Shown here piece after piece: positions 1-19,096 of a DNA stretch of 51,558 nt. Both the position numbers and the translations under genes were made by a program. The notes beneath the pieces were generated by a model. The model did not search any database. It was not told where the DNA came from and saw only the letters and a list, made by a program, of their open reading frames with translations. Source of the DNA: an uncultured Candidatus Micrarchaeota archaeon. GTDB lineage: Archaea > Micrarchaeota > Micrarchaeia > Burarchaeales > Fermentimicrarchaeaceae. Position 1 is the first letter of the stretch; each line of letters opens with the position of its first letter. The stretch covers positions 1 to 51,558 of the forward strand of contig CAIXRF010000020.1 in the NCBI GenBank assembly GCA_903921825.1. Reading direction: 5' to 3'.

Positions 1-58
1 AACTACTACTAACTACTACTCTATAACAAAAATAATAGGGGAAGTACGGGGTCCCCTT

Positions 59-1558: not shown

Positions 1559-1583
1559 AGCACCAACCCCACGAAACGCTTAT

Positions 1584-2213: not shown

Positions 2214-2243
2214 CCTTTTATTCCACCGCTGCAAAATCCGCCC

Positions 2244-2636
2244 GTGGATGTTGATTTTGCCACCGACGTGCAGGGGCGCGTCGAGCGAATAGTCGAAGTC
2301 CTTGGCCTCGGGCACATCAACCAGTTCCGCATAATCTGCATGCGCTCGAAAGGTGCGAAGGCAAACGCATACGCCCGGATATGGAACCTGCCGCGCATCT
2401 GGCAAAAGGCCCTCGGAGTGCGCGCTTATTACGTAATTGAGGTCCTCTCCGAGAATTACGACCCCCTGGGCGAGGAGGAGCGCGACAGGGTCCTCATACA
2501 CGAGCTCATGCACATACCGAAGACCTTCAGCGGCGCGTTAGTCCCCCACCTCTGCTTCGGGAAGCGCATCAGCTGGAGCACGGTGGCGAAGGTCTACGAG
2601 GTTTACAAGGCGCGCGAGCGCGGGGCGGGCAATTAA
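2244..2636 (+). CDS. Putative small Zn metallopeptidase (HExxH; archaeal COG4900-like)
   Basis: GTG start. HELMH motif in LIHELMHIPKTFSGAL, plus ARIWNLPRIWQ and YVIEVLSE blocks typical of this archaeal family. The stop abuts the next gene's ATG at 2637. Confidence 0.65.
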   Translation: MDVDFATDVQGRVERIVEVLGLGHINQFRIICMRSKGAKANAYARIWNLPRIWQKALGVRAYYVIEVLSENYDPLGEEERDRVLIHELMHIPKTFSGALVPHLCFGKRISWSTVAKVYEVYKARERGAGN

Positions 2637-3416: not shown

Positions 3417-3422
3417 ATTAAA

Positions 3423-4313: not shown

Positions 4314-4836
4314 GTGCGCCCACTCTTTTCATTTTTCCAAAAATAGCGCGAGCCTTAGCCCTCAATTCCCCATCAACTTCGAGCAGCACCATCCCTCTTT
4401 TCGGCTGGCCATAGACTACGGGAGTCCCGTTCCGTGCGTAGATTAGCACGACAAGCGCGGCAAGGTCCTCTTCGCCAATTACGAGTATCTTCCCCCTGCC
4501 TCTCTGTAGCACCCTCCTGACCGTGGTGACTAACCCATCAGTGATGAACCCAGGCGGGTTTGCGACGCGCAGCGCTTTGCCATCGTACGCATCGAGCCGT
4601 GCTGCAAGGGCGCCCCTGACTGGCTCGCGGAGGCAGCGGTGGTCGTATATCACCACCGCAGGGTGTATGCCGCCCCTGAGAAGTGCTCCCGAGCAGAAAT
4701 CCCCGACCGAAACAACGTTCCTCTTCCCCTTGAGAAGGGAAACCGCCCGTCTCCCGCTCACGACTTTCCCCAGCGGCCGCCGCAGGATGGCGCGCGTTTC
4801 AGCAGTCAGCTTCTTCACACGAAGGATTTCGCCCAA
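4303..4836 (-). CDS. GTP-dependent dephospho-CoA kinase (DUF359 family)
   Basis: Motifs VSVGDFCS, VIYDHRCLR, VANPPGFIT, VIGEEDLAALV and VVYGQPKRGMV. The longest ORF starts at TTG 4836. GTG at 4818, about 25 nt from the TATA at 4840-4851, is an equally good leaderless start. Confidence 0.75.
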   Translation of the reverse strand: MGEILRVKKLTAETRAILRRPLGKVVSGRRAVSLLKGKRNVVSVGDFCSGALLRGGIHPAVVIYDHRCLREPVRGALAARLDAYDGKALRVANPPGFITDGLVTTVRRVLQRGRGKILVIGEEDLAALVVLIYARNGTPVVYGQPKRGMVLLEVDGELRAKARAIFGKMKRVGAPSV

Positions 4837-4880
4837 GAGTTATAAATATCCCCCCGCAAAATCTTTACGTCGGTGTTACA

Positions 4881-5783
4881 ATGGCTGGAGGGTGGAGATG
4901 GGGGCTGCTGCTCGTGCTTGCGATAGCCCTGCTCGCAGCCTACGGCTCGCTCTCGCTCCAGGTCAGCTCGGCAACTCACGTCTTCCTCGACCTTGCGCCG
5001 AAGCTCGGCCTCACCCTGCTTGCGATTTTCGCCGGTAAGGTCGTCCTCGACGTCCTCGCGCAGCTCATCGGGAACGTAGTCCGGCCGCCGGAGCTGCGCC
5101 GGACCGTGCGCGACCTCGTGGCACTCGCCGTCTGGCTCCTCGTTTCGCTAGCCATCCTCGCAGTTTTCATCGGGGATATGAGCGCCCTGCTCATAGCCGT
5201 CGGTCTCATAGGATTCGGCCTCACATTCTCGCTCCAGAAGCCCATCCTTTCATTCGTGGGCTGGTTCGCGATAGTTTCGCAGCGCATCTACAAGGAAGGG
5301 GACATGGTGGAGATCGAGGGGATAAAGGGCGATGTCGTTGCAGTCGGCCTGCTCACGACCACCATCCGCTCCGCGGGCGAGGAGGAGGGGAAGGCCGTTG
5401 TCCTGCCGAACCTCACCGTACTCGAGCACCCGGTCACGAATTACACACAGGACTTCCCATACGTTTGGGACGAGGTCTCCCTTCCCCTGCCGGAAGGGGC
5501 GGACGCGGCGCACCTGAAGAACATCCTGCTCGGTGCCAGCGACGAGATTATAGGGAACAGGAAGATGGCCGAGAACGCGAAGGAATACGTGCGCCTGCTG
5601 CAGGGCTCGGGCGTCGCAGTCCGGAAGCACGCGCCGGAAGTCCTATTCTCGCTGCGCGGCGATGGCGCGGTGCTCACGCTGAGGTACATAGTCCAGGTAA
5701 GGCAGAGGGAGAGCGTGAAATCGGCGCTCAGCGCAAGGATACTGAAATCACTCAGGGAAAAGAGCGCGAAGCGGGGCGACTAG
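4881..5783 (+). CDS. mscS: Small-conductance mechanosensitive channel (MscS family)
   Basis: N-terminal TM helices followed by GFGLTFSLQKPILSFVGWFAIVSQRIYKEGDMVEIEGIKGDVVAVGLLTTTIR, the MscS pore helix and beta domain. Confidence 0.8.
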   Translation: MAGGWRWGLLLVLAIALLAAYGSLSLQVSSATHVFLDLAPKLGLTLLAIFAGKVVLDVLAQLIGNVVRPPELRRTVRDLVALAVWLLVSLAILAVFIGDMSALLIAVGLIGFGLTFSLQKPILSFVGWFAIVSQRIYKEGDMVEIEGIKGDVVAVGLLTTTIRSAGEEEGKAVVLPNLTVLEHPVTNYTQDFPYVWDEVSLPLPEGADAAHLKNILLGASDEIIGNRKMAENAKEYVRLLQGSGVAVRKHAPEVLFSLRGDGAVLTLRYIVQVRQRESVKSALSARILKSLREKSAKRGD

Positions 5784-5786
5784 CGC

Positions 5787-6449
5787 TTATTCGAGGACTT
5801 TGGCCCGGTCCTTCCCACCAACAACTACCACTGGCCTGTTTCTGGTGAATATTCCGTTCGCGACAACTCCCGGGATGCACTGCAGGCCGCTTTCGAGCCT
5901 TCCCGGGTTCGCAACCTTCCCAAACCCCGCGTCGATTATCCAGTTGCCGTTGTCCGTGACTATCGGCCCGCACTTTCCGCATCCGCACCTGACCGAAACC
6001 TTCGCGCCAAACTCCCCTGCGATTTCCCGGGCAACGGGCGAAGCCGCGAAGGGAATCACCTCAACAGGGACAATCCCCCGGAAATCGGGCTTCATCTTCG
6101 ACTCATCGACTACGCAAACGAACTTCTTCGCGAGGTAATCAACCACCTTCTCCCTAGCAAGCGCGCCGCCCATCCCCTTTATGAGGTTGCGGCTCGGGTC
6201 CACAAGGTCCGCGCCATCAACGGCAACGTCAATCCCCTTCACCTGGTCGAGTTCCGCGAGGCAAAGGCCAGCCCTGACTGCGATTGCGCGCGCGTCGTGC
6301 GACGTGGCCACGCAGGCAACGTCCAGCTTCTTGCCGCCCAGCATCTCAATGAACAGGGCAGCGGTGCTCCCACTCCCAAGGCCCACAACCATCCCATCTT
6401 TGATGAAGCCCAGCGCCTTCCTCGCGGCGCTCGCCTTCGGGGAATCCAT
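5787..6449 (-). CDS. rpiA: Ribose-5-phosphate isomerase A
   Basis: GMVVGLGSGSTAALFIE, DVAVDGADLVD and LIKGMGGALAREKVV motifs. Confidence 0.9.
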   Translation of the reverse strand: MDSPKASAARKALGFIKDGMVVGLGSGSTAALFIEMLGGKKLDVACVATSHDARAIAVRAGLCLAELDQVKGIDVAVDGADLVDPSRNLIKGMGGALAREKVVDYLAKKFVCVVDESKMKPDFRGIVPVEVIPFAASPVAREIAGEFGAKVSVRCGCGKCGPIVTDNGNWIIDAGFGKVANPGRLESGLQCIPGVVANGIFTRNRPVVVVGGKDRAKVLE

Positions 6450-6483
6450 AATCTTTTATTATGCGGGGCACCTTTAAAACTCC

Positions 6484-6960
6484 ATGCGAGCCGAGAAGGC
6501 GCAAACGGCAGTCGAGTTCCTCACATCGAACAGCGGTGCGGTCGTGCTCATCCTGCTGCTCGTGGTGCTGCTCTTCTACATAGGCATATCGAACTCGAGC
6601 TTCAAGCAGCAAAGCTGCTCTTTCGAGGGGTTCTTCAGCTGCCACTCCTACAAGATTGACAGCAGCGCCGGCCTCGCGCTGGAGACTGGGCAGGCCACCG
6701 GAGGGTCGGTAATCGTCTACGCAATTTCCTGCACGTCCTCGCCGGAAGGCCTCCCGGTGTTCCAGGCGCTCAGCAATGCCGTCTTCATCCCGCACGGCGA
6801 CTACCGCTACATCGCAGGCGGAAATTCCGGGAACATCATCCACTGCGGGGCGCCGGAGCGCGGTGACTCCTTCAGGCAGAAGATTTGCCTCGTCTATTCC
6901 GCAGTGGACTTCCGGGTCAACCATACTGCCTGCGGAAATCTCGCTACGCGAGTGGAGTAA
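6484..6960 (+). CDS. Archaeal type IV pilin-like protein (class III signal peptide)
   Basis: N-terminus MRAEKAQTAVEFLTSNSGAVVLILLLVVLL matches the K-[AG]-Q / xxxE[FY]L prepilin-peptidase site followed by a hydrophobic helix. Confidence 0.6.
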   Translation: MRAEKAQTAVEFLTSNSGAVVLILLLVVLLFYIGISNSSFKQQSCSFEGFFSCHSYKIDSSAGLALETGQATGGSVIVYAISCTSSPEGLPVFQALSNAVFIPHGDYRYIAGGNSGNIIHCGAPERGDSFRQKICLVYSAVDFRVNHTACGNLATRVE

Positions 6961-6967
6961 TGGACCG

Positions 6968-9379
6968 ATGCGCGCAATTTTGATAGACTGTGATTACGTT
7001 ACGAGCAAGCGGAGAGGAACGGCCGCGGTGCGGCTGCTGATGAAGCGGAAGCGCTTCTTCCGCCTCTACGACACGAAGTTCGAGCCCTACTTCTACGTCC
7101 ACGCCCGCGGCGCACCCGGCGAGGCGAGGGAGGAGGCTGCGAAGATTTCAATGCTAGTGAACGGGGAGAGCATCGCCCCGTCGCGCACGGAGCTGGTGGA
7201 GAAGCTGCTTCTCGGGAAGCCGGTGCAGCTGGTGAAAGTCTTCTGCAAGCATCCAACGCACGTGCGCATGCTCCGCGAGCGTGCGAAGGCGCTCGGAACA
7301 GTGTATGAGGCGGACCTGCCTTTTGCCCGCCGCTACCTCATTGACAAGGGCCTGACCCCATTCTACAGCCTCGAGTTCAAGCGCAAGGGAAAGGAGATCG
7401 CAGAGCTCCTCTCCAGTTCGCCTACCCATGAGCTTAAGCTCCGCAGCCTCGCCTTCGACATTGAAACTTACAACCCGAAAGGCTCACCGCGTCCGGAGAA
7501 GGACCCGATGGTGATGCTGAGCTACGCAGACGAAGAGAGCGGTGTCATAACCTACAAGCAAATCCCACTGCCCTTCGTCAAGACGGTCGCCGGCGAGAAG
7601 CAGCTCCTCGAAGAATTCTCCCGCCTCGTGAAGGAGAGGGACGTCGAACTCCTGCTGGGATACAACGACGTCGCCTTCGACCTCCCCTACCTGAAAGAAA
7701 GGGCCAAGGCCACCGGCGCCTCCCTCATCCTCGGCAGGGACGGCAAGTCCTCCTTCAGGACGCAGAGCCGTGGCCTCTTTTCCTACGCGAAGATAAAGGG
7801 CAGGCTCCACGCCGACATCTATGCGGTGGCGAAGTTCCTCAGCCTCATAGGCGCGCTCAAGACCAAGCGCATAACCCTGGGCGAGGTCTTCTCCGAGATG
7901 TTCGGGGAGGAGAAGAAAACGGTGAAGAAGCAGGACATCTGGCGCCTGTGGGACGGCGGCGAGGAGGACCTGAAGACACTCGCGGAATATTCGCTCCACG
8001 ACGCAATCGCAACGAAGCGGATAGCGGACGAAGTGCTCCCGCTGGAGTTTGAGCTCTCGAAGCTGGCGGGTGCCTCCCTCCAGGAGGTCTGCGGCGCGAC
8101 AACCGGGCAGCTCGTTGAGATGCTCCTTTGGCGGGAGGCGCACAACCAGAACCGCGTAGTGCCGAACAAACCTGATGCGGACGAGGTGCGCGCAAGGGAG
8201 AACGCGCCCGTGCAGGGCGCATACGTCAAGCTGCCCGAGGCCGGAATCTACGAGGGCCTCGCGGTCTTCGACTTCCGTGGGATGTACCCCTCAATAATTA
8301 TCTCCCACAACATCGACATGGATACGCTGAACTGCGACGACTGCACGGATGCAGAGAAGCACGTTTCTCCGCTCGGGCACAAGTTCTGCTCGAAGAGGAA
8401 GGGTCTCATCCCCTCTGTGCTCGAACGCCTCATCGATGAGCGCGACAGGCTCAAGAAGGAGCTGAAGAAGCACGCCCCCGACTCGGCGGAATACAAGCCG
8501 CTTTTCGCGCGCTCCCAGGCGCTTAAGATACTGAGCAACAGCTTCTACGGCTTCCTCCTCTACTCGCGGAGCAGGTGGTATTCGCGGCCGTGCGGCGAGT
8601 CCGTCACCTCTTACGGGAGGCAGTACATACAAGATACGATAAGGAAGGCGGAGGAGGCAGGATTCCACGTCCTCTACTCCGACACGGACTCCATAGTTAT
8701 GCAGCTCAGCGGGAAAACCAAGGAGGAGGCGCTCGCGTTCATGAAGGCGATAAACGCCGCGCTTCCGGGCAGGATGGAGCTCGAGCTCGAGGCGTTCTAC
8801 CCCCGCGGCGTCTTCGTGGGGAAGAAGCTCTCCGGCGCGAAGGCGGAGGTCGGGGCGAAGAAGAAATACGCGCTAATCGGCGAGGACGGCAGGATAAAAA
8901 TAAGGGGCTTCGAGCTCGTGCGCAGGGACTGGTCGCGCGTAGCGAGGCACACGCAGCAGAGAATTCTCGAGGCAATCCTGAAGGAGGGAAGCAAGGAGAA
9001 GGCGGCTGAAATCGTCCGCGGGGTCATCCAGGACCTCCGCGAGGGGAGGGTGAAGCTCGAGGACTGCGTCATCTACACGCAGATAAGGAAGAGCCTGAAG
9101 AACTACGCGATCACTTCCCCGGAGGTCGCGGCAGCGCAGAAGGCGATAAAGGCGGGCATTCCTGTTGAAGTTGGCACCCTCGTCGGCTACGTCGTCACGA
9201 AGAAGGGTAAGTCCATCTCGGAGAAGGCGCAGCTCGTGGAGCTCGCTGAGGACTACGACCCAAACTATTACATCGACCACCAGGTGCTCCCCGCGGTGAT
9301 GAAGATAATGAAGGAGCTGGGCTACGAGGAGTCGGACCTCAAGGGCGAGGGAAAGCAGTCAAGGCTCGGCTCATGGTGA
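6968..9379 (+). CDS. polB: Family B DNA polymerase
   Basis: Exo motifs FDIETY, YNDVAFDLPYL and YSLHDA. Pol motifs DFRGMYPSIIISHNI (A), KILSNSFYG (B) and YSDTDS (C). ATG 6968 (MRAILIDCDYV) was chosen; the ORF extension back to 6776 overlaps the pilin gene. Confidence 0.95.
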   Translation: MRAILIDCDYVTSKRRGTAAVRLLMKRKRFFRLYDTKFEPYFYVHARGAPGEAREEAAKISMLVNGESIAPSRTELVEKLLLGKPVQLVKVFCKHPTHVRMLRERAKALGTVYEADLPFARRYLIDKGLTPFYSLEFKRKGKEIAELLSSSPTHELKLRSLAFDIETYNPKGSPRPEKDPMVMLSYADEESGVITYKQIPLPFVKTVAGEKQLLEEFSRLVKERDVELLLGYNDVAFDLPYLKERAKATGASLILGRDGKSSFRTQSRGLFSYAKIKGRLHADIYAVAKFLSLIGALKTKRITLGEVFSEMFGEEKKTVKKQDIWRLWDGGEEDLKTLAEYSLHDAIATKRIADEVLPLEFELSKLAGASLQEVCGATTGQLVEMLLWREAHNQNRVVPNKPDADEVRARENAPVQGAYVKLPEAGIYEGLAVFDFRGMYPSIIISHNIDMDTLNCDDCTDAEKHVSPLGHKFCSKRKGLIPSVLERLIDERDRLKKELKKHAPDSAEYKPLFARSQALKILSNSFYGFLLYSRSRWYSRPCGESVTSYGRQYIQDTIRKAEEAGFHVLYSDTDSIVMQLSGKTKEEALAFMKAINAALPGRMELELEAFYPRGVFVGKKLSGAKAEVGAKKKYALIGEDGRIKIRGFELVRRDWSRVARHTQQRILEAILKEGSKEKAAEIVRGVIQDLREGRVKLEDCVIYTQIRKSLKNYAITSPEVAAAQKAIKAGIPVEVGTLVGYVVTKKGKSISEKAQLVELAEDYDPNYYIDHQVLPAVMKIMKELGYEESDLKGEGKQSRLGSW

Positions 9380-9417
9380 GCGCAATACTCTTTTAATCCA
9401 CGCAACCAAATCCACGC

Positions 9418-10080
9418 ATGCCAAAAATAAGGGCGGTCTTCTTCGACATAGACAACACGCTCTTTCCCACGGACAAATTCGCGGAGTTCGCCAGAAGGCG
9501 GGCAATAAGGGCGATGGTGAAGGCGGGCCTCAAGGCAAGCGAGGGGAAGGCATACCGCACGCTCACGCACGTCGTGAGGAAGCACGGCTCCAACTACCCC
9601 CAGCATTTCGACAGGCTGCTCGAGCGCCTCGGAGCGCCACGCGACCCGAAGCTCATCGCTGCAGGCATACTCGCGTACCACCAAGCCAAGTCGGAGCTGA
9701 AGCCTTACCCGGACGTTCCGCCAACCCTATGCGCCCTGCGCAGGAAAGGCCTCCCACTCTACGCACTTTCCCGCGGAATCGCGGTCAAGCAGTGGGACAA
9801 GCTCATCCTGCTGGGCCTCGGGAATCTTTTCGATGGCGTTTTCGTCACGAATAGAAAAGACGTGCACTTCTACTCACGCGTCATCCGCAAGCTGCGGCTC
9901 CAGCCTTCCTCCGTGGTGATGGTCGGAGACAACCCAAGGATAGACACAGCTCCCGCAAGGCGGGCAGGCATCACCACGGTTAGGCTCATAAAAGGCAAGC
10001 ACGCGAAGGAGAAGGGCGCGGCGGACTTCAGGATTCATTCGATGCGGGAACTCCCGCGCATCTTGCGAAGGGTGAAATGA
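9418..10080 (+). CDS. HAD-superfamily hydrolase
   Basis: Motif I is VFFDIDNTL and motif IV is MVGDNPRIDTAPARRAG. Confidence 0.8.
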   Translation: MPKIRAVFFDIDNTLFPTDKFAEFARRRAIRAMVKAGLKASEGKAYRTLTHVVRKHGSNYPQHFDRLLERLGAPRDPKLIAAGILAYHQAKSELKPYPDVPPTLCALRRKGLPLYALSRGIAVKQWDKLILLGLGNLFDGVFVTNRKDVHFYSRVIRKLRLQPSSVVMVGDNPRIDTAPARRAGITTVRLIKGKHAKEKGAADFRIHSMRELPRILRRVK

Positions 10081-10982
10081 TGCAGCTGGAAGCGAAGGAA
10101 CTCGAGGCATATGAGCGCGCGGGCCACATAGCCCACTCGGCGCTCCACATGGCGAAAGGGCTTACGAAGCCGGGCGTGAAGCTGCTCGAAATAGCCGAGA
10201 AGACGGAAGCATACATCATCGAGCAGGGCGCGAAGCCTGCATTCCCGGTGAACCTCTCAGCCAATGAGGCGGCGGCCCACTACACTCCAGAGAAAGACGA
10301 CGCGACATTGGTGGGCGAGAAGGACCTATTGAAAATAGACGTGGGCGTCCACGTCGATGGCTTCATAGCGGACAACGCGCTCACACTCGACTTCTCCGGC
10401 GAGCACGGGAAGCTCGTGGAAGCATCAGAAAACGCCCTCAACACCGCAACCTCCTCTGCGAAGGCAGGCGCAAAGCTCTCCGACTTGGGCGCTGCGGTTG
10501 AATCCGCGATAAAGGGGTTCGGCTTCCGGCCGATAGAGAACCTCACCGGCCACCTACTCGGCAGGTATGAGCTTCACGCTGGGCTCGAGATACCGAACAT
10601 AGCAACAAAGGACGGCCGCGCCCTTGAGGAGGGGCAGGTGATTGCAATCGAGCCCTTCGCAACCACTGGCCAGGGCCGCGTGGGCGAGGCGCAGAAGGTC
10701 GAAATCTTCTCCCTTGTTGAGAGCAGGCCTACGCGGATGAGGGAGGCCCGCCGCCTCCTCTCCTTCGTCGAGTCGAACTACAGGACCCTGCCGTTTGCCG
10801 AACGCTGGCTCCGTGAGCAGTTCCCCTCGAAACTCTTCCTTCACAGCGCAATAAGGGAGCTCGTCCTCTCCGAAGCCCTAGAGCAATATCCAGTGCTCAA
10901 GGAGGTGAAGAGCGGGATGGTTTCGCAGGCCGAGCTCACCATCCTGGTTGAGCGCGACGGTGCCCGCATCCTGACGCACTAG
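10077..10982 (+). CDS. map: Methionine aminopeptidase, type 2 (archaeal)
   Basis: AGHIAHSAL...FPVNLSANEAAAHYTP, IDVGVHVDGFIADNA, HLLGRYELHAG and IEPFAT motifs. ATGA overlap with the HAD gene. Confidence 0.9.
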   Translation: MMQLEAKELEAYERAGHIAHSALHMAKGLTKPGVKLLEIAEKTEAYIIEQGAKPAFPVNLSANEAAAHYTPEKDDATLVGEKDLLKIDVGVHVDGFIADNALTLDFSGEHGKLVEASENALNTATSSAKAGAKLSDLGAAVESAIKGFGFRPIENLTGHLLGRYELHAGLEIPNIATKDGRALEEGQVIAIEPFATTGQGRVGEAQKVEIFSLVESRPTRMREARRLLSFVESNYRTLPFAERWLREQFPSKLFLHSAIRELVLSEALEQYPVLKEVKSGMVSQAELTILVERDGARILTH

Positions 10983-11773
10983 CCAGTGTAGCTGACGAGT
11001 TCTGTCGTAGTGTTGGAAGCGACCATCTTCACTGGGACGGCTATCGTCGCCACTTGCCATACATCCGCGGTGTATGTGCCGCTGGCGCTCGTGCTGACCA
11101 CGCGTATCTTCGTCGCAGGCCCGGTATATGCAGGCACGCTCACCTGCTCGACCCCGACCGTCGTAATCGTAGTCTGCGATCCAATCGGCTCACCTGTCCC
11201 CTGCCCGGCCGCGGGGCATTGCCCCGGAATCGTCTGTCCTGAAAACACCGATTCCGCCTTCACGCACCGGCACCCTACCTTGGCATCCCATTCTCTTGCA
11301 GTAACCGTGGTTCCGCTTGTGTTCATAGTCGCCGTCCTGAGCACAGTGTCTACTCCCTCAACAGTTCCGCCTTCGCCTGTCGTGTACTGCAGGACCAGAG
11401 TTGTATTCTCAGTTATGACGCGGTATGTATAGCTTAGGCCTGCCTGTGCGCAGCCGAACACATTCTCCCACGTCGCGTTTCCTCCTGCCGGAGTGGGGGT
11501 GGGAAGCTCGCCTGGCGTTTCAGTCGGTGAAGCAGGCGGAGTCTCGGCCGGAGTTTCTGTTTCCTCTACAGTGGGCGTTTCCGCAGGCGTCTCCGTGGTC
11601 TCAGCCGTAGCATTCGCGGTCGGAGTCACAGCCGGCGTTTCCGTAGTCCCGGGCGTCATATGCGGGCTCGGTGTCGGAGTTGCACCGCCCCCGCCAAGGC
11701 CAAAGCAGCCGTACAAAAGCAGCGCAGCAACAGCCACCATGATAACACCAAGAATCCGCCCCATCCAAATCAC
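10979..11773 (-). CDS. Lipobox-like secreted protein: ET/PT-rich linker plus a conserved ~165-aa domain (paralog of 41655-42986)
   Basis: Signal with LLLYGCFGLGGG, a long TPxxTP/ETP linker, then a domain sharing the motifs W.NVFGCA, GCRCVK, VSVPAYTGPATKIRV and VPVK with the N-terminal half of the 443-aa protein. Confidence 0.7.
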   Translation of the reverse strand: MIWMGRILGVIMVAVAALLLYGCFGLGGGGATPTPSPHMTPGTTETPAVTPTANATAETTETPAETPTVEETETPAETPPASPTETPGELPTPTPAGGNATWENVFGCAQAGLSYTYRVITENTTLVLQYTTGEGGTVEGVDTVLRTATMNTSGTTVTAREWDAKVGCRCVKAESVFSGQTIPGQCPAAGQGTGEPIGSQTTITTVGVEQVSVPAYTGPATKIRVVSTSASGTYTADVWQVATIAVPVKMVASNTTTELVSYTG

Positions 11774-11794
11774 CCGAAGGGCTTTCGCCCCGGC

Positions 11795-11803
11795 TATTTA
11801 AAT
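11795..11803. promoter_or_regulatory. Near-palindromic TATA box (TATTTAAAT) shared by the divergent tRNA-Arg and the 10979-11773 gene
   Basis: It lies 27 nt upstream of tRNA position 1 (11830) and 22-30 nt upstream of the ATG at 11773 on the other strand. Confidence 0.4.
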
Positions 11804-11829
11804 CCCTGCGCCGCGCGTAATTAACCCGC

Positions 11830-11946
11830 GGGCCCGTAGCGCAACTGGATAGCGCGGCTGGCTTCGAACCAGATGGTTGGGGGTTCGAACGCAAGTTCGC
11901 TTGCGCGAACAGCGCATTCGGCTTGCCGAATTTCCCCTCGGGCCCG
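11830..11946 (+). tRNA. tRNA-Arg (anticodon UCG) with a 43-nt intron (11890-11932) between positions 59 and 60 of the T-loop
   Basis: Hand-folded cloverleaf. Acceptor GGGCCCG/CGGGCCC; U8 A9; D stem GCGC/GCGC with A14, G18 G19 and A21; anticodon stem GCUGG/CCAGA; loop CU-UCG-AA; T stem GGGGG/CCCCU. Spliced T-loop reads TTCGAAT. No CCA is encoded. A T-run (ctttttg) follows. Confidence 0.85.
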
Positions 11947-11984
11947 CTAACTCTTTTTGAAAATTGGAAAAGGAAAATAGGCGC

Positions 11985-13640
11985 CTAATCCATGCCTTCC
12001 ATTCCGCCGCCCATGCCGCCTGGCGGCATCGCGGGCGCCTTGCCCCTTGCTGCAATCATGTCATCTATCCTGAGCAGCATCTCCGCCGCCTCGCTCGCAG
12101 ATGCGATTGCCTGGGTCTTCACCTTGAGCGGCTCGATTATGCCGAGCTTCTTCATGTCGTCTATCTTTCCGGCATAGACATCGACGCCAAGGCTCCTGTT
12201 CTCAGGCCCCTTGTGCTTGCTCCTCAGCATCACAAGGCAGTCTATCGCATCCATCCCGGCGCTTTCCGCAAGCGTGCGGGGGATGGACTCGAGCGACTCG
12301 GCGAACGCCTGTATTGCGAGCTGCTCCCTTCCTCCGACGTCGTTCGCATACTTCCTGAGCTGCTGGGCCAGTTCGACTTCGGTGCTCCCGCCGCCGGTCA
12401 CGTATTTCCCCACCTCAATCGCGGAGGAAACCGCGCCAATGGCATCCACGACGGCTCTCTCACCCTCGTTCACAACGTGCTCGGTGCTCGCGCGCACGAA
12501 GATAGTGACGCTTTTCGGGTCCTTGCACTGTTCCACGAAGACCATCTGCTCCCCGGCGACCTTCCTCTCCTCCACGATGCCCGCGCTCCCGAGGTCCTTT
12601 GCGCTAATGTCATCGAGGCTCGTGGCTATCGTCGCGTGCGTCGCCTTCGCGAGCTTATCCATGTCACTCTTCTTCACACGCCTTATTGCGACGATGCCTT
12701 TCTTTGAGAGGAAGTGCTGCGCCACGTCGTCTATCCCCTTCTGCACGAAGACAACGTTTGCGCCGCTCTTCGCAATCTTATCAACCATCTCCCTAAGCAT
12801 CTTCTCCTCCTGGTCGAGGAATGCTTGCATCTGGTCCGGGGAGGTTATCTCAATCTTCGCGTCCGTCTCCGTCTTCTCAATCTCCAATGCCGCGTCAACG
12901 AGCGCTATCTTCGCGTTCGTCACCTTCTTCGGCATCCCCGAATGGACGATTTCCTTGTCGATGACTACGCCGCTTATGAACTCGGTGTCATTTATGTCGC
13001 CGCCCTCCTTCTTCTCCACCTTTATGAAGTCGTCGTCAATCTCAATCTTCCCGTCCTTCTTCTCCGCGACCTGCTTCACTGCCTTCACAACCAGCTTTGC
13101 AAGCTTGTTCTTCGCGTCGCCAACGCCGACCGTCTTCGAGCCCATCGCGACGCTTGCAATCTTCTCAAGCGTCTCCGTGTCTTCAAGCCCCACAGGGTAG
13201 GAAATGTGCTGCAGAATCTCGTTCGCCTTCGTCGCCGCATTCTTGTAGCCGTTTATGAGCGTCGAGGCGTGTATGTTCTGGTCAAGGAGGTCTCCGGCCC
13301 TCTTCAGCATCTCGCCCGCGAGCATCACGCTCGTCGTCGTGCCGTCGCCGACCTCCTTGTCCTGCGTCTTGGCTATCTCAACCATTATCTTCGCGGCGGG
13401 GTGTTCGACGTTCATCTCCTTAAGGATTGTCGCCCCGTCGTTCGTAATCACGATGTCGCCCATGTCGCTCACGAGCATCTTGTCCATGCCCTTGGGCCCC
13501 AGCGTCGTCCGGATGGCGCTCGCCACAGCGTATGCCACAGCGATGTTCGTCCACCTTGCATCCCTTCCCTGAAGCCTGCTGCTCCCCTCGGGGAGAATCA
13601 AAACCTGCTGTCCACCAAGCTGTCCACCTTGTCCTGCCAT
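11985..13640 (-). CDS. ths: Thermosome subunit (group II chaperonin)
   Basis: [27 protein letters not shown] and VTGGGSTE motifs, with a C-terminal [11 protein letters not shown] tail. Confidence 0.97.
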
Positions 13641-13766
13641 ACCTATTACCTCCGTTAATTTCGTTCAAAAACATCGCACAAATAGCTGTGCATTTTCAAT
13701 GGGTATTTGCGCATACGGGTTTAAAAAGATTAGACCCTAACCCCTAACCTTAACTCAAAAACTCAG

Positions 13767-13928
13767 TTAATCTCTATACTTTTCAAGAAGTTCCTTTACA
13801 AGGCCCGTCCCACCCACACGCTTACCCTCCTTTTGCTTAGTCAAAACATTTAGTTTGTGCGTTTTCGGAAAAAACCGTTCTTCAATCTCCATGATTGAAC
13901 GATAAACTTCACCCCGCTTAGTTCCCAT
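13767..13928 (-). CDS. Hypothetical 53-aa protein (micro-ORF coupled to the Ntn-hydrolase-like gene)
   Basis: ATG at 13928 lies inside ...GGATGGGAACTAA, overlapping the upstream stop by 11 nt. It shares the low G+C of the upstream gene. The longest ORF starts at TTG 13955. No recognisable domain. Confidence 0.35.
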   Translation of the reverse strand: MGTKRGEVYRSIMEIEERFFPKTHKLNVLTKQKEGKRVGGTGLVKELLEKYRD

Positions 13929-15162
13929 CCTGGACACCCCCAACACAACTATCAAAAAACTGAGGATTAAGTTCCGGTCTGAAATAATGTTTGCGCTTTA
14001 TCCAAATAAAGCCATCTCCTCTTGAAATTACTGCAACATCAATTGGGCCACCAACCGTTTCGGCCACCATCGTAACTTTTCTTTTAAACGACGTAAGATT
14101 AACTAGCGATTCAGCCATCGCTGCGAGCTCACTTTTTGGAAGTATAGACACAACTTGGAGAACCGGATCGATATGAGTAGTTCTTCGATAATCCTTCAAC
14201 CGCGCTAGGTAGTTGTCGACATCCTCGCGCCTCATCTTTGCACAAATTTCGCGTATATCCGCTTCTAGCGCAGCTTCGTACTCTGGGTCTACTCCTTCCA
14301 TAAATGTGAAAACCATCTCACTTTGAGCAAACGGCATGATTGCTTGGTCAATACCATTCCCAATTTTTAGGTCCTTTGTTACCAAATACTTCAAATGGTT
14401 GTTAATTATGCACTCGAATGCGTAAGATTGCAACACGGGGAAAATGTCTTTCTCACCAAAACCCGTAATCACAACACCTGATACATTATAAGGTTGGTAA
14501 GACCCCATCGGAAACTTTGTAAATAAATATACCGCGATATCTGATAATTTCAGGATGTCGTCATGTCCTATTGGCAGTTTTTCAAAAATCTCCTCTCGGA
14601 TAACCGAAATAACCCCATTGTATTTTTTTTGGAATAATTCAAAACTACTCTTATCCATAAACTCCGCATTGGGCGCTCCTTTCTGGTATACGTGATGTTT
14701 TTCTACAATCATTTGTGTTATACTCTTCAACTTATCAAAGGTGATTTCCGACCGTTCCTTCAGCTTCAGATCTGCCTCTTCTAAGATCTCTCTCTTGATC
14801 AGAGAAAAATAACCCCGTATACTGGCTTTGATATGGTCCTCTTGCACGTGTTTCGGGAAAAGATTCCTGTCGTTCTCTAAGAACCGTATAAAATCCGCAG
14901 CATACTGTCCCAAATTCGCAAAACTTCCTTTACCCAAATGCTTCCTATACATCTTGATTATGCTCTCCCACGGGATACTCATAAAATCTGCATTACCATA
15001 AACCATTATACCTACGGGCTGGAACTTAGACAATGCAAAAATCTTGTTCGCCGATGTAATAATTTTTTGTCCTTCTCCCCTACTAACTGTTATCGCGCTA
15101 TCGGCAGCAATCGCAACAGCTTCCTTATTCATTATCACTATTTCCGCAGTCACGTTGTCCAC
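13918..15162 (-). CDS. Proteasome-beta/HslV-like Ntn-hydrolase-fold protein with a large internal insertion (orphan, low G+C)
   Basis: N-terminus MDNV-TAEIVIMNKEAVAIAADSAIT...ANKIFAL...GIMVYGNADF mimics proteasome beta Thr1/Asp17/Lys33 blocks. Later blocks are VVITGFGEKDIFP and ETVGGPIDVAVISRGDGFIWI. The composition is strongly AT-rich compared with the neighbouring genes. Confidence 0.6.
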   Translation of the reverse strand: MDNVTAEIVIMNKEAVAIAADSAITVSRGEGQKIITSANKIFALSKFQPVGIMVYGNADFMSIPWESIIKMYRKHLGKGSFANLGQYAADFIRFLENDRNLFPKHVQEDHIKASIRGYFSLIKREILEEADLKLKERSEITFDKLKSITQMIVEKHHVYQKGAPNAEFMDKSSFELFQKKYNGVISVIREEIFEKLPIGHDDILKLSDIAVYLFTKFPMGSYQPYNVSGVVITGFGEKDIFPVLQSYAFECIINNHLKYLVTKDLKIGNGIDQAIMPFAQSEMVFTFMEGVDPEYEAALEADIREICAKMRREDVDNYLARLKDYRRTTHIDPVLQVVSILPKSELAAMAESLVNLTSFKRKVTMVAETVGGPIDVAVISRGDGFIWIKRKHYFRPELNPQFFDSCVGGVQDGN

Positions 15163-15192
15163 CGTTACATCGAAATATACATAAATGAAATA

Positions 15193-15702
15193 TTAAAACT
15201 CTACTCCTTCTCTCGCCGGCACTCCCTCTGCGAACGGATGGGAAACTTCTTTCATCTCCGTCACCAAATCCGCCTTCTCAATCACTTCCTGCGGTGCATA
15301 CCTCCCAGTCAGAACGAGTTCCATCGACTTCGGCGCCTTCCGCATGAGCGCAAGCACATCGCCGAGCTTCAGCAGCCCGAACTTCAGCGCCACGTTTATC
15401 TCATCAAGAATCAAAAGGTCCGGAGGGTTCTCCTCCATCTGCTTCCTGGCGAACTTCAGCCCCTCCTGCGCAAGCTCGAAGTCTATCGGCAGGGGCTTCA
15501 GCGGGTCCACGAAATCCAGCCGACCAAATTGGTGGACCTCCATCCCCTGCAGCTTGTTGCCCAATTTGTACTCGCCCACATCCTTCCTGCCCTTGAGGAA
15601 CTGCACGACCACAACTTTCTTCCCGCTCCCTAGCGCCCTCATGGCTAGGCCGAACGCGGCAGTGGTCTTCCCCTTTCCCTCTCCAGTATACACATGAATC
15701 AT
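15193..15702 (-). CDS. cobA: Cob(I)yrinic acid a,c-diamide / cob(I)alamin adenosyltransferase (CobA/CobO/BtuR type)
   Basis: P-loop in IHVYTGEGKGKTTAAFGLAMRALG, plus VVVVQFLKG, LLILDEINVAL and VLTGR motifs. Confidence 0.9.
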   Translation of the reverse strand: MIHVYTGEGKGKTTAAFGLAMRALGSGKKVVVVQFLKGRKDVGEYKLGNKLQGMEVHQFGRLDFVDPLKPLPIDFELAQEGLKFARKQMEENPPDLLILDEINVALKFGLLKLGDVLALMRKAPKSMELVLTGRYAPQEVIEKADLVTEMKEVSHPFAEGVPAREGVEF

Positions 15703-15758
15703 GGTAAAACCCGCTTTCGCTGCCCCTGTTCTTAAATTTGCCTTCGTCGCCTGTCCAA

Positions 15759-18449
15759 CTAGTCCTTCTTTATCTCACACTTCGTGCATCCGCCGCTCTC
15801 CTCGGCATGCGCCTTCCTGAACTCGCTGCCGTCGCGGATACACGAAACACCTAGCGATGACGCACCAGCAGTAAGTCCCAACGGCTGCGCCCCTGCAGGT
15901 GGAATTCTCGGCAACGCCGCCTCTTCAATGGGCGCGCCAGCCTGCGGCAGGACGACTGCATCCGCATCCATTGGTGCGGACACGGCAGCCACTACCTGCG
16001 CAACAGCAGCAGAAGACGGCGGCTCAGATGCAGGAGCAAGCGGGAGGTTTGCGCTCGCAGGAATGGCCACGGGCTTCTTCTCCTTCTTGAACGCCTGAAT
16101 GGAAAGCACTTGCTGGTCGCGCGAGCCATCGCGATAAACGGTCACTCCCTTGCACCCAAGGCGGTAGGCGAGCATGTACGCCTCCTCAACCTCTGCCGGC
16201 GTGGCATGGTTCGGGAAGTTTATCGTCTTGGAAACAGCATTGTCCGTATATTTCTGGAAAGCGCCCTGCAGCCTGATGTGCCATTCCGGGGTGATGGTAT
16301 GTGCTGTCACGAAGATGCGCTTCACATCCTCTGGAACCTCAGGGCAATCATGCAGCCCGCCGCTCTTCGCAATCTTCCTCATCAGCTCGATGGAGTAGAA
16401 TCCCCTCTCCTTGGCGACCTTCTCGAATACGGGGTGTATCTCAAGCAGCTCCGTGTTGTCCATCACATTCCTGACGAAGACGATGGCGAAAAGGGGCTCC
16501 ACGCCCGAGGAGCAGCCCGCAATTATCGAGAGCGTCCCAGTTGGCGCAATCGTGGTCATAGTGGCATTTCTCATTGGCGGAGCGCCCGGCGCGTCGAAAA
16601 TGCTGCCCTTGAAATTCGGGAAAGGCCCCCGGACCTCGGCAAGCTTCACGCTCGCCTTCCTCGCCTCCTCCCAGATGAATGCCACGACCTTCTCCGCAAC
16701 TGCGGCGGACTCCTCGCTGTTATAGGGAACGCCGAGGCCGAAGAGCAGGTCTGCGAAGCCCATCACGCCAAGCCCTATCTTCCTGTTAAGCTTCGTCATC
16801 CGCTCAATCTCAGGAAGCGGGAACTTGTTCACGTCAATAACATTGTCCAGGAAATGAACTGCAGTCCAGGTGGCCTTGCGCAGCCCATCCCAGTCTACCT
16901 TCGCGTCCGCAGTGAGCATCTTCGCGAGGTTTATGCTCCCGAGGTTGCAACTCTCATAGGGAAGCAGGGGCTGCTCGCCGCAGGGGTTCGTGGACTCAAT
17001 CTTCCCAACGTGCGGAGTCGGGTTCCCGGCGTTAATCTTGTCTATGAACACCACTCCGGGCTCCCCGTTCTTCCACGCCTTCTCCACAATCAGGTCAAAG
17101 ACCTTCCTCGCGCTCAGCTTCTCGCGCACGCTCCCGTCACGCGGGTTCAGCAGCTCATATTCGCTGTCCTTCGCAACGGCATCCATGAACTTGTCCGTGA
17201 CTGCCACCGAGATGTTGAAGTTGTTGAACACGTCGTTCCGTTCCTTGCACGTTATGAACTCAAGCACGTCGGGGTGGTCCACGCGGAGCATGCCCATGTT
17301 CGCGCCCCTCCTCCTCCCACCCTGCTTAATCACGTCCGTCGCGGAGTCGAAGACGCGCATGAACGAAACCGGGCCAGAGGCTACCCCCCCCGTGCTCCGA
17401 ACGACATCGCCCTTTGGCCTGAGCCTAGAGAAGGAGAAGCCCGTCCCCCCTCCAGACTGGTGTATTATCGCTGTGTGCTTCACCGTATCGAATATGGACT
17501 CAATCGAGTCTTCCACAGGAAGAACGAAGCACGCGCTCAGCTGCCCCACGGGCGTTCCGGCGTTCATCAAAGTTGGGGAGTTCGGGAGGAACTCCAGGTT
17601 CACCATCGCCTGGTAGAACTCCTCCTCAGTCTTCTTCAGGTCAGCATGCCTGTCGTAGAAAATATCAGCAAGCGCAATTGCCTGCGCAACCCTCCTGAAC
17701 ATCTGCTTAGGCGTTTCCACAACATTCCCGTTCCTGTCCTTGAGCAAATACCTCCTCTCGAGCACCTTTATGGCATTCACGCTCAGCCTCGTGTCCACGT
17801 CGTCGACGGGCGCATTCAGCAGCTCCGCCTTCAGTTGCCTCAGGATGGCGCGCTTCTGCCTGTAGAGGATGTAAGCCTTCGCCGTCCTTGCATGCCCGTT
17901 CTCGATGAGGACTTTCTCCACGATGTCCTGTATGTCCTCGACCCCAGGCGTCTTCTCCTCGGAGAACTTCGCATTAACAATCTTCGTGACTTCCTCGGCT
18001 AGCGCAGCCGAAAGGTCCCTGTCCTTCCCGCCTACGGACTGTGCTGCCTTCCAGATTGCCTCCGTAATCTTCTCAGTGTCGAACGGAGTGACCCTCCCGT
18101 CCCTCTTCCTGATTTTCGTTACGTGCTTCTCTTCGCTCCTCGGCTCCCTCTTCGTTTCAGGCACTGGGCCTGCCCTCTGCTCCTCCACCCACATCTCTAT
18201 TACTTTCCCTTTCTCAGGAACAGCACCCCTCCAGGAGAGCAGCTCCACGTCGCTGTTGTCCGTGACGACTGTTGAGGGAGTGCTCATCAGGCCGTAATAC
18301 ATTGCCTCAGCCTTTCCGTCAACTGTCTGAACATCGAAATGCTCCACCTTCACTCCCTGCGCCTCCAGCTCGTCAATCACAGCCTTCGCTGAAGGGCATT
18401 TCGGGCAGTTTTCCTGCGAAAAAAACTTCACTTTCATGAGCATCACCAT
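15759..18449 (-). CDS. nrdJ: Class II (adenosylcobalamin-dependent) ribonucleotide reductase with N-terminal thioredoxin-fold domain and ATP-cone
   Basis: Trx-like N-terminus (ENCPKCPSAKAVIDELEAQG). ATP-cone (VTKIRKRDGRVTPFDTEKITEAI). Catalytic core TNPCGEQPLLPYESCNLGSINL and APTGTLSIIAGCSSGVEP. An Ala/Pro-rich linker precedes the C-terminal GGCTKCE tail. Confidence 0.92.
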   Translation of the reverse strand: MVMLMKVKFFSQENCPKCPSAKAVIDELEAQGVKVEHFDVQTVDGKAEAMYYGLMSTPSTVVTDNSDVELLSWRGAVPEKGKVIEMWVEEQRAGPVPETKREPRSEEKHVTKIRKRDGRVTPFDTEKITEAIWKAAQSVGGKDRDLSAALAEEVTKIVNAKFSEEKTPGVEDIQDIVEKVLIENGHARTAKAYILYRQKRAILRQLKAELLNAPVDDVDTRLSVNAIKVLERRYLLKDRNGNVVETPKQMFRRVAQAIALADIFYDRHADLKKTEEEFYQAMVNLEFLPNSPTLMNAGTPVGQLSACFVLPVEDSIESIFDTVKHTAIIHQSGGGTGFSFSRLRPKGDVVRSTGGVASGPVSFMRVFDSATDVIKQGGRRRGANMGMLRVDHPDVLEFITCKERNDVFNNFNISVAVTDKFMDAVAKDSEYELLNPRDGSVREKLSARKVFDLIVEKAWKNGEPGVVFIDKINAGNPTPHVGKIESTNPCGEQPLLPYESCNLGSINLAKMLTADAKVDWDGLRKATWTAVHFLDNVIDVNKFPLPEIERMTKLNRKIGLGVMGFADLLFGLGVPYNSEESAAVAEKVVAFIWEEARKASVKLAEVRGPFPNFKGSIFDAPGAPPMRNATMTTIAPTGTLSIIAGCSSGVEPLFAIVFVRNVMDNTELLEIHPVFEKVAKERGFYSIELMRKIAKSGGLHDCPEVPEDVKRIFVTAHTITPEWHIRLQGAFQKYTDNAVSKTINFPNHATPAEVEEAYMLAYRLGCKGVTVYRDGSRDQQVLSIQAFKKEKKPVAIPASANLPLAPASEPPSSAAVAQVVAAVSAPMDADAVVLPQAGAPIEEAALPRIPPAGAQPLGLTAGASSLGVSCIRDGSEFRKAHAEESGGCTKCEIKKD

Positions 18450-18517
18450 CGCTAACTGTCTAACATAAATATTTCAGTTTCCCAGCCCCTTCCTTTGCCC
18501 TAAATTATCGCCAAAAA

Positions 18518-18533
18518 CCACTATATATTGGGG
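18518..18533. promoter_or_regulatory. NrdR box 1 (CCACTATATATTGGGG)
   Basis: On the gene strand it reads CCCCAATATATAGTGG, compared with the published NrdR-box palindrome acaCwAtATaTwgtgt. It lies upstream of nrdJ. Confidence 0.6.
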
Positions 18534-18548
18534 TTTCAGCTGTTGCAC

Positions 18549-18564
18549 AAACTATATATGGTGA
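18549..18564. promoter_or_regulatory. NrdR box 2 (AAACTATATATGGTGA)
   Basis: On the gene strand it reads TCACCATATATAGTTT. The identical ACTATATAT core sits exactly 31 bp from box 1, which is the typical tandem NrdR-box phasing. Confidence 0.6.
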
Positions 18565-18640
18565 TGCTTATAAAGCTATCCAAAGGCCTATTTTCCAGAG
18601 AAAAAGGAGGCAAATCCAGCCCCAAATCCGACTTTAAGCC

Positions 18641-19096
18641 TTAATCTTCTTTCAGTTTGTCCAGTTCGCGCTCAAATGCCTGCAGATTCCTGAAAGACTT
18701 GTAAACGGAAGCGAACCGGACGTATGCGACAGGGTCTATGGCGCGCAGCTTTTTCATCACCAAATTCCCAATCAGCTTGCTCTGCACCTCGTTCGAGGCC
18801 ATGGTGCGCAGCTCCTGCTCTATTTCATCCACCGCGCGCTCAATCTTCTCAGTAGGAATTGGTCTTTTCTCGCATGCACGCCTAATCCCCGCGATGAGCT
18901 TGTTCCTGTCGAAGGCCTGCCTGCTCCCGTCCTTCTTCACAACGATAAGGTCGAGGAGCTCAATCCTCTCGTAGGTAGTGAAGCGCTTCTCGCACTTCGC
19001 GCACTCCCTCCTCCTTCGCACGGCTGCCTGGTCCTCGGTCTCGCGCGAGTCAATAACCTGCGTTTCCTCATTGAAGCAGTAGGGGCACTTCATCAA
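18641..19096 (-). CDS. nrdR: Transcriptional repressor NrdR (Zn-ribbon plus ATP-cone)
   Basis: MKCPYCFNEETQVIDSRE...RRRRECAKCEKRFTTYE zinc ribbon followed by an ATP-cone (VVKKDGSRQAFDRNKLIAGI). Confidence 0.92.
   Translation of the reverse strand: MMKCPYCFNEETQVIDSRETEDQAAVRRRRECAKCEKRFTTYERIELLDLIVVKKDGSRQAFDRNKLIAGIRRACEKRPIPTEKIERAVDEIEQELRTMASNEVQSKLIGNLVMKKLRAIDPVAYVRFASVYKSFRNLQAFERELDKLKED

Follow-up and report, generated by a model that had tools for sequence, protein, structure and literature searches.

In this study, we analysed a 51,558-nucleotide contig from an uncultured Candidatus Micrarchaeota archaeon (CAIXRF010000020.1 of GenBank assembly GCA_903921825.1, positions 1 to 51,558; the whole stretch is hereafter called the window) and found that an AT-rich islet between the cobA gene and the thermosome gene is a self-contained, horizontally transferred cassette of two genes. 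One encodes a hydrolase of the N-terminal nucleophile (Ntn) type, which structure prediction places in the proteasome-beta fold with the Thr-Asp-Lys set intact; the other encodes a micro-protein. The enzyme family is already catalogued as an uncharacterised proteasome homologue. What is new here is the obligate micro-protein partner, the behaviour as a cassette whose empty site could be mapped, and the link of the pair to mobile elements and to defence islands. Based on these results, we consider that the chances are about even that the cassette is a mobile conflict module, of a defence or toxin-antitoxin-like kind. The features on which the argument is built are the following, in coordinates of the window:

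13732..15192, no strand: inserted islet of ~1.46 kb that separates the stop codon of cobA from the thermosome promoter, recognised by its composition and by the empty site in relatives
13918..15153, minus strand: hydrolase gene, 411-residue proteasome-like Thr-Ntn hydrolase (PMI-type, see below; phrog_5990), GTG start at 15153, in an open frame that extends to 15162 (414 residues)
13767..13928, minus strand: micro-protein gene, 53 residues, with GGGGGTG upstream; its ATG lies within the end of the hydrolase gene, giving an overlap of 11 nt
15193..15702, minus strand: cobA flank (cob(I)yrinic acid a,c-diamide adenosyltransferase; PF02572 match), of host composition
11985..13731, minus strand: thermosome flank, with the gene at 11985-13640 (Cpn60_TCP1 match) and its conserved promoter region at 13641-13731

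An initial annotation, made by eye from the sequence, had put the islet at 35-40% G+C in flanks of 55-60%, and computation bears out the contrast. The 1,460 bp from 13733 to 15192 have a G+C content of 0.409 (40.9%), against a mean of 0.580 (58.0±2.3%; standard deviation 0.023, minimum 0.508) in the other segments of that length (z = -7.3). At third codon positions, G+C (GC3) is 0.42 in the hydrolase gene and 0.39 in the micro-protein gene, against 0.72 in cobA, 0.78 in the thermosome gene and 0.74 in the ribonucleotide reductase gene, and the tetranucleotide distance of the islet from the remaining window reaches z = 10.6. All three measures deviate, and the composition of the islet lies far outside chance. 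The site itself is empty in two relatives whose CobA proteins are 89% and 79% identical to that of the window (L093 and L091): in the alignment, the cobA stop codon is followed by a few bases and then by the conserved thermosome promoter, which starts with AATCTTTTTAAACCCGTATGC (full conserved stretch, AATCTTTTTAAACCCGTATGCACAAATACCCATTGAAAATG) and which resumes in the window at ~13731, directly past the islet. A third relative (CobA 78% identical) holds an unrelated pair in the same gap, a gene for a 119-residue protein of unknown function and one for a 328-residue protein with a double AsnC-type helix-turn-helix, so that this archaeal lineage has a variable site between cobA and the thermosome gene. 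The deviant composition and the empty sites in relatives thus confirm the earlier suspicion of a horizontally acquired accessory module.

The second line of evidence concerns the partnership of the two genes. A 414-residue open reading frame (ORF) at 13918..15162 on the minus strand and a 53-residue ATG ORF overlapping it by 11 nt had both been read from the sequence, the smaller as consistent with translational coupling; both are present, and the survey upholds the partner. We compared 82 loci, which come from 80 GTDB species genomes and from metagenomic contigs (four metagenomic or metagenome-assembled contigs entered the survey, from Altiarchaeales, Brocadiaceae and two others), and in ~78 of them a homologous ORF of 52-80 residues occupies this place. 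Likewise, a small ORF of 49-80 residues directly follows or overlaps the hydrolase stop in the contexts that we inspected, be they contigs, GTDB genomes, phages, satellites, a plasmid or an E. coli prophage. Across 59 loci, the pairwise identities of the hydrolase and of the partner are correlated (r = 0.81, Mantel p ~0.001; for pairs below 60% identity, r = 0.70), which argues that the two genes are inherited and evolve as a unit, with the partner diverging faster (mean identity 25% against 46% for the hydrolase). Taken as sequence evidence, this shows an obligate, co-evolving partnership in which the micro-ORF is a real gene. Three of the ~82 loci (L041, L048 and L081) have no recognisable motif-bearing ORF downstream of the hydrolase, and in distant phage versions (a Streptococcus satellite and a Porphyromonas prophage) the small ORF is present with a barely recognisable motif. 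In E. coli H3 (NZ_CP010167.1) it is an unannotated ORF of 49 residues lying 24 nt past WP_000123148.1 (L097, 9264-9413), and no small coding sequence is annotated after the hydrolase homologue of the Stenotrophomonas phage (L095).

The partner has a simple layout, made of a Lys/Arg-rich N-terminal tail, a motif, a polar linker that often ends in D-P or D-A, and an amphipathic helix, GxxLAxExLxxIRxxL. Its motif, [FY]xS[IM]xE[FIW][EK][KR]x[FY][FL]P, has an invariant Pro and reads YRSIMEIEERFFP in the window; the core xSxxE[FI]E[KR]x[FY][FL]P is there SIMEIEERFFP. Profile searches with the partner found no known family or structure (no relatives in Pfam or PDB), and a database search limited by its word index returned 16 stand-alone proteins of 53-66 residues and no fusions. 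Modelled alone with AlphaFold2 (AF2), it gives three short helices at low confidence (mean predicted local distance difference test, pLDDT, 60). The partner, of ~55 residues and basic, is thus probably poorly structured or disordered by itself and probably folds on binding. A ribbon-helix-helix DNA binder was considered for it and dropped, given the lack of profile support, the three low-confidence helices of the model and the missing N-terminal strand.

The start of the hydrolase had to be revised. All homologues begin with MTAE, gene callers choose the second GTG (15153) to give a protein of 411 residues starting with MTAEI, a Shine-Dalgarno-like GGTGGA lies 4 nt upstream of this GTG, and in almost every one of the 150 best representatives, residue 1 falls on profile position 1. 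The second GTG is therefore almost certainly the true start, judging from these sequence comparisons. As this start gives Met-Thr, as in all homologues, the protein has no propeptide, and the short propeptide first read in front of the Thr has to be abandoned. With the Thr at residue 2, removal of the initiator Met alone would expose the catalytic Thr1. The catalytic set itself, proposed from the start as T5, D21 and K40 (numbering of the 414-residue frame), withstands comparison: the three residues are invariant in 31 homologues, and in a set of 60 family members conservation reaches at least 97% for M1, T2, D18 and K37 (numbering of the 411-residue protein) and likewise for a GxG motif, FAQ, TV(GG)PxDVA, DG and WIKRKHYF.

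The proteasome fold, also suggested initially, is recovered by profiles of single blocks and by structure. The profile of the N-terminal 75 residues matched only proteasome subunits in PDB, with M1-T2, D18 and K37 aligned to Thr1, Glu/Asp17 and Lys33 of the beta subunit 6z46_H. With the C-terminal block profile, the three best PDB matches were proteasome beta subunits (E = 0.024-0.026), and the other four (ribosomal protein L3, penicillin-binding protein 2) had E >1; in the match at E = 0.024, TVGGPIDVAVISKGDGF aligned to ASGGMIDVAVITRKDGYV of the T. acidophilum proteasome beta subunit, so that both blocks fall in register. The AF2 model, built with 31 homologues, has a mean pLDDT of 79.8 and a predicted TM-score (pTM) of 0.77, and all of its Foldseek matches in PDB listed down to rank 50 are 20S alpha or beta subunits or Anbu (best E 1.5e-5, probability 0.97-1.0, target TM ~0.5). 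The full hydrolase protein or profile gave no significant match in Pfam, NCBIfam, PADLOC or PDB sequences; for PF00227 (Proteasome) in particular, no Pfam match appeared at E up to 10, and full-length profiles did not reach proteasomes significantly. Fuchs, Alva and Lupas (Bioinformatics 2021, PMC8665760) describe distant proteasome homologues that likewise lack a significant Pfam proteasome match. Faint matches to cullin and HerA lie in the helical insertion and are regarded as chance, and a Foldseek search of viral structures (BFVD) returned nothing significant.

In the model, the core is interrupted twice. Secondary structure is as predicted by AF2, with residues in the numbering of the 414-residue frame:

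15043..15150, minus strand: N-terminal catalytic block, with the Thr1 codon ACT at 15150-15148, the Asp17 equivalent at 15102-15100 and the Lys33 equivalent at 15045-15043
residues 7-56: S1-S5
residues 65-76: H1
residues 84-97: H2
14518..14853, minus strand: helical insertion 1, four predicted helices after core H1/H2 (residues ~104-215), the least conserved part (column identity 0.38-0.48)
residues 228-279: four core strands, the first after insertion 1 at 228-234
residues 281-289: H3
14143..14286, minus strand: helical insertion 2, between core H3 and H4 (residues ~293-340; predicted helices 293-309 and 312-340)
residues 343-364: H4
residues 374-390: two C-terminal strands
13981..14142, minus strand: C-terminal block LPKxELAAMAESLVNLTSFKRK...ETVGGPIDVAVISKGDGFIWIKRKHYF (H4, S10, S11), column identity 0.86-0.87

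A single charged, helical-looking insertion had been noticed by eye; the model predicts helices over 104-215 in agreement with it and adds the second insertion at ~293-340, which had been missed. The window hydrolase is 26 residues shorter in insertion 2 than all 30 aligned homologues (columns 317-342). The segment that it lacks reads YPEIIVESIEKxxxxEKxxLKxKLK in the family; the catalytic and core residues are intact, and this gap of ~26 residues could be a tolerated deletion or early decay.

These features lead to a family that has been described before. The catalogue of 22 new proteasome homologues by Fuchs and colleagues includes PMI-3 and PMI-4 ("Proteasome homolog with Multiple Insertions"), which lack a propeptide and have long insertions, one following H1/H2 and one separating H3 from H4; PMI-4 counts 501 sequences at nr90, from many bacterial phyla, Euryarchaeota and phages (PMC8665760). 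The hydrolase of the window shares with them a proteasome-beta-like core, the Thr1/Asp17/Lys33 triad, the absence of a propeptide and of an AAA+ partner, and both insertions, the first with its four helices at the "pore loop" site after H1/H2 and the second between H3 and H4. It shares with PMI-4 a family of hundreds of diverse sequences that has spread by horizontal transfer over a wide range of phyla, in bacteria, Euryarchaeota and phages. We find the family also in Altiarchaeales, Asgard and DPANN archaea, which are not listed for PMI-4 in Table 1 of the catalogue (PMC8665760). Judged by architecture and distribution against the published description, the hydrolase is very probably PMI-4 (published representative HDY66466.1), or possibly PMI-3 (OGZ26396.1); ten family members of NCBI origin bear accessions other than these two. 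A class defined by a single long insertion after H1/H2 and by tight sequence links to proteasomes was rejected, as the H3-H4 insertion is present and the links are below significance. The authors of the catalogue reported no genomic context or co-occurrence hinting at function, and the micro-protein partner, the cassette behaviour and the sites in mobile elements and defence islands are all absent from their description (PMC8665760). Among phage protein families, phrog_5990 ("unknown function") is matched by the window protein with E = 2e-110 and by the homologue of a Providencia phage with E = 6.8e-152; one phage homologue has a weak match to the PHROG "peptidase HslV family". Of 1.84 billion representatives of clusters at 50% identity, 5,969 match the family with an E-value of 1e-3 or better and 3,441 with one of 1e-30 or better. 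The protein had been introduced as an orphan without a named homologue: given phrog_5990, the PMI-3/PMI-4 architecture and the 5,969 clusters this can no longer be said, but it was correctly kept apart from HslV and connectase, and it corresponds to no PADLOC v2 model.

Other members of the superfamily differ more clearly. Connectase (the MJ0548 family, a monomeric protein ligase) also has an N-terminal Thr nucleophile, helical insertions that probably cap the active site and block rings and, plausibly as here, a dedicated partner or substrate with a short motif. However, connectase has lost H1/H2 and carries a two-helix insertion between S3 and S4, whereas here H1 and H2 are predicted to be present, the insertions follow H2 and separate H3 from H4, and none lies at S3/S4; connectase is confined to methanogens with MtrA as substrate and no mobile cassette, whereas the present family is pan-prokaryotic. 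We therefore do not count the hydrolase among connectases. HslV (ClpQ) is a prokaryotic protein of the proteasome-beta fold in which Thr1 is similarly bared by Met removal, but it is a protein of ~175 residues without insertions, forms double hexameric rings, and is encoded with the AAA+ unfoldase HslU, on which it depends. The hydrolase of 411 residues with two insertions and no AAA+ gene adjacent or conserved nearby does not belong there, and hhalign found nothing when the family profile was compared with E. coli HslV (probability 4%). Anbu and BPH are also prokaryotic homologues of proteasome fold without a known unfoldase, and Anbu chains are among the Foldseek matches. A coiled coil at the C-terminus (H5) distinguishes Anbu, and BPH is a compact protein that forms rings; the two insertions and the micro-protein partner are missing from both. 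The gene of Anbu shares a conserved operon with genes of ATP-grasp and transglutaminase-like type.

The family has a wide and patchy distribution. Two peptide patterns located it in at least 536 of the 185,579 species genomes (a lower bound), in dozens of bacterial and archaeal phyla and with 39-50% identity to the window protein, and it is present in 22 of 5,426 complete E. coli genomes. The cassette is carried by ten plasmids and by 13 of 50,697 phage records, seven of which are Streptococcus satellite phages. No third gene travels with the pair: with eight neighbours considered per locus, none is common to more than four of 80 loci, and those four are related ANME archaea. An alpha subunit, HslU or another AAA partner, noted as missing next to the gene in the window, is not conserved in the 80 other loci either. 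In two Altiarchaeales loci (L001 and L003), the cassette appears to interrupt the gene of a UbiA prenyltransferase, of which fragments of 152/183 and 292 residues flank it on the opposite strand; a third (L002) has uncalled gaps where these fragments lie. Orphan ATPase genes (AAA_14/DUF4143 and ATPase_2/MJ1010-like) flank the cassette in L001 and L002, and L003 shows only the ATPase_2/MJ1010-like gene because its contig ends upstream.

The genomic context of the cassette favours a function in conflict. One locus has SIR2-HerA, a specificity subunit of a type I restriction-modification (R-M) system and RhuM nearby. In L006 (ENA ctg362377, 1-17332 of a 4.68 Mb contig), the cassette sits in a dense Dnd/BREX-like island with an SNF2-PLD helicase, and in L007 it lies near EcoRV R-M, other methylases, ParE and MqsA. 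Among 140 immediate neighbours we counted type IIG R-M (5), PbeA (3), type II methylases (3), PDC-S01/DUF4143 ATPases (2-3) and Fic (2). In phages, the cassette takes recurrent positions: after the lysin at the right genome end of Streptococcus prophages, at the element end in the seven Streptococcus satellites, and between antiterminator Q/Dam methylase and holin in a Providencia lambdoid phage and in a Qin-like prophage of E. coli. The latter has it on the strand opposite to the late genes and next to hokD; in a Stenotrophomonas phage it is divergent from the lysis cassette, and a Porphyromonas prophage also carries it. In temperate phages and PICI-type satellites, such positions are known as classical sites of moron and accessory cargo that house defence systems and toxins. 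The L006 island also contains DUF4007, Gp49-type toxin-antitoxin genes, a BrxC/PglY-like ATPase of 1,184 residues, a PAPS-reductase-like gene and an AAA_23 protein, and it could house more uncharacterised defence genes.

How could such a pair work? Both insertions are placed, in the model, at the sites of proteasome ring and ring-ring contacts, which makes a compartmentalised barrel unlikely; it has been argued that insertions at such sites should prevent assembly of a ring or double-ring barrel (PMC8665760). The self-compartmentalised proteolysis that had been among the suggested roles is thus improbable, and by analogy with connectase the hydrolase is more likely to be a small, helically capped, substrate-specific enzyme. 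We propose that the micro-protein, translationally coupled to it, would bind the hydrolase stoichiometrically and would either gate or inhibit it or be its dedicated substrate. A stoichiometric gating or inhibiting complex is favoured because the genes are coupled, the partner is predicted to be disordered alone and diverges fast, and the H4/S10-S11 face of the hydrolase is extremely conserved (0.86-0.87). Loss or displacement of a labile partner, on infection or on loss of the element, would then release the Thr protease, which would cut targets of the host or of the phage, with anti-phage or abortive-infection defence, or toxin-antitoxin-like addiction, as the outcome. What the comparisons show is the fold, the catalytic residues, the obligate partnership, the mobility of the cassette and its place on mobile elements and in defence islands; the enzymatic activity, the oligomeric state, the role of the partner and the defence function are inferred. 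Protease conflict systems (protease-gasdermin pairs, CHAT/Craspase, and Lon-like or ImmA/IrrE-type protease modules of toxin-antitoxin or defence type) offer a parallel in the operon logic of a protease with a small or cleavable partner and in their carriage on mobile elements and in defence islands. None of them is built on a Thr-Ntn enzyme of proteasome fold, and the likeness is one of possible working mode, not of membership. A more specific proposal, which we make tentatively and with clearly less confidence than that of a conflict module in general, is that the cassette represents an undescribed class of immunity or abortive infection: a non-barrel Thr protease of proteasome fold, or a connectase-like transpeptidase, that would be held or armed by a co-translated micro-protein of ~55 residues and spread by prophages, satellites and plasmids.

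Several points weigh against a conflict module. The defence-type share of the immediate neighbours is ~10%, a rough estimate from aggregate family counts without a null comparison, and many neighbours are housekeeping genes (CO dehydrogenase, UbiA, ThiC), as in the window itself. Neither cassette protein has a match in PADLOC-DB v2 at E up to 10, and our literature search for functional studies of the family or for a link to defence found none. The equivalent of Ser129 in the hydrolase is a Phe (GFG), so that its catalysis may depart from the canonical proteasome mechanism. Finally, classical type II toxin-antitoxin operons usually place the small antitoxin upstream and not downstream.

Among the other explanations, dedicated processing or ligation survives best, unlikely as we hold it to be. 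Here the micro-protein would be a substrate and no regulator: the hydrolase would cut it at a conserved site, in the vicinity of the FFP motif or of the D-P/D-A element, and so release an active peptide, or would ligate the peptide to another protein through a Thr1 acyl-enzyme in the manner of connectase. Connectase is a precedent for a monomeric homologue that has helical insertions and is strictly specific for a motif (PMC8665760). The sharply conserved short motif of the partner with its invariant Pro, the D-P dipeptide that precedes the last helix in many copies, and a coupled translation that supplies both proteins 1:1 would all suit such a reaction. However, the D-P element is not conserved and is missing from the window copy, the 80 loci reveal no co-occurring target protein, exporter or immunity gene, the search limited by its word index found neither fusions nor further partners of the micro-protein, and the H1/H2 loss and S3/S4 insertion that mark connectase have no counterpart here.

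A pure addiction module, which would stabilise mobile elements as a toxin-antitoxin pair without any defence against phages, is in our view somewhat less probable again. The overlapping two-gene layout, the small, fast-evolving and probably disordered partner, and the carriage on plasmids, prophages and satellites are what one would expect of it, and other toxin-antitoxin genes adjoin the cassette in L007, as does hokD in the E. coli prophage. But many copies, including that of the window, stand alone among housekeeping genes of a chromosome, where there is no element that they could stabilise; moreover, being a toxin-antitoxin pair would not preclude a role in abortive-infection defence.

It is quite improbable that the cassette serves temperate phages or satellites, for instance in counter-defence, lysis timing or the processing of virion or host proteins, and that the chromosomal copies are remnants. 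Adjacency to lysis genes or Q in several phages and membership in a PHROG family speak for such a role; yet only 13 of the 50,697 phage records carry the cassette, most copies, archaeal ones included, are chromosomal without phage genes nearby, and in E. coli H3 and the Stenotrophomonas phage the transcription opposite to the late genes is typical of morons expressed in the lysogen. An ordinary housekeeping or stress protease, of HslV- or Anbu-like quality control and merely odd in composition, has intact catalytic residues and an adjoining chaperonin gene in the window to recommend it, but is already contradicted by the empty sites beside CobA proteins 89% and 79% identical, by a GC3 of 0.42 against 0.72-0.78 in the flanks, by the patchy distribution and by the lack of an unfoldase partner, and is hardly credible.

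If the cassette is indeed an immune class of its own, proteasome-family chemistry would have been recruited directly for antiviral defence in prokaryotes. Enzymes of the proteasome family are known as barrels for bulk degradation (20S, HslV), with the ligase connectase as the striking exception. Here, one of the largest families of homologues catalogued in 2021 gains a concrete genetic definition, with a partner, a cassette and preferred sites, and an anonymous hypothetical protein becomes a candidate, open to testing, for a mechanism of defence or of toxin-antitoxin type that would be new and would rest on a Thr-Ntn enzyme. Natural copies in E. coli, such as that of H3, and in enterobacterial phages, such as the Providencia phage pair QQK88393/QQK88394, make its function directly testable, and an enzyme as sequence-specific as connectase, if this is what it is, could become a tool.

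At its two ends, the islet carries short non-coding stretches that may control the cassette:

15154..15192, minus strand: AT-rich cassette leader, with a TATA-like TTTATGTATATTT and the Shine-Dalgarno-like GGTGGA, as read from the sequence
13732..13766, minus strand: 3' end piece of the cassette, which contains a T5 run (CTGAGTTTTTGAG), as read from the sequence

The leader is a putative promoter of the cassette, and the T5 run could be an archaeal terminator. No convincing terminal direct or inverted repeats or target-site duplication were found at the ends of the islet. The sequence just past the cobA stop codon is faintly like the thermosome promoter, possibly by chance or as microhomology from the insertion event. 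A 13-mer at the hydrolase start (GGTGGACAACGTG on the coding strand, 15151-15163) resembles two tandem 13-mers, GGTGGACAGCTTG and GGTGGACAGCAGG, at the 5' end of the thermosome gene (13604-13628), with 85% identity (repeat family D2); here, too, chance or insertion microhomology is possible.

Beyond cobA, the ribonucleotide reductase encoded at 15759-18449 on the minus strand is class II-like, with an N-terminal thioredoxin/glutaredoxin-like domain (CPKCP) and a long Ala/Pro-rich C-terminal tail that has a CxxC at its end. A second, milder stretch of low G+C (0.445-0.47) lies upstream of this gene at 18200-18800 and is probably an AT-rich intergenic or promoter region; in a related contig, NrdR is found upstream of the ribonucleotide reductase gene.

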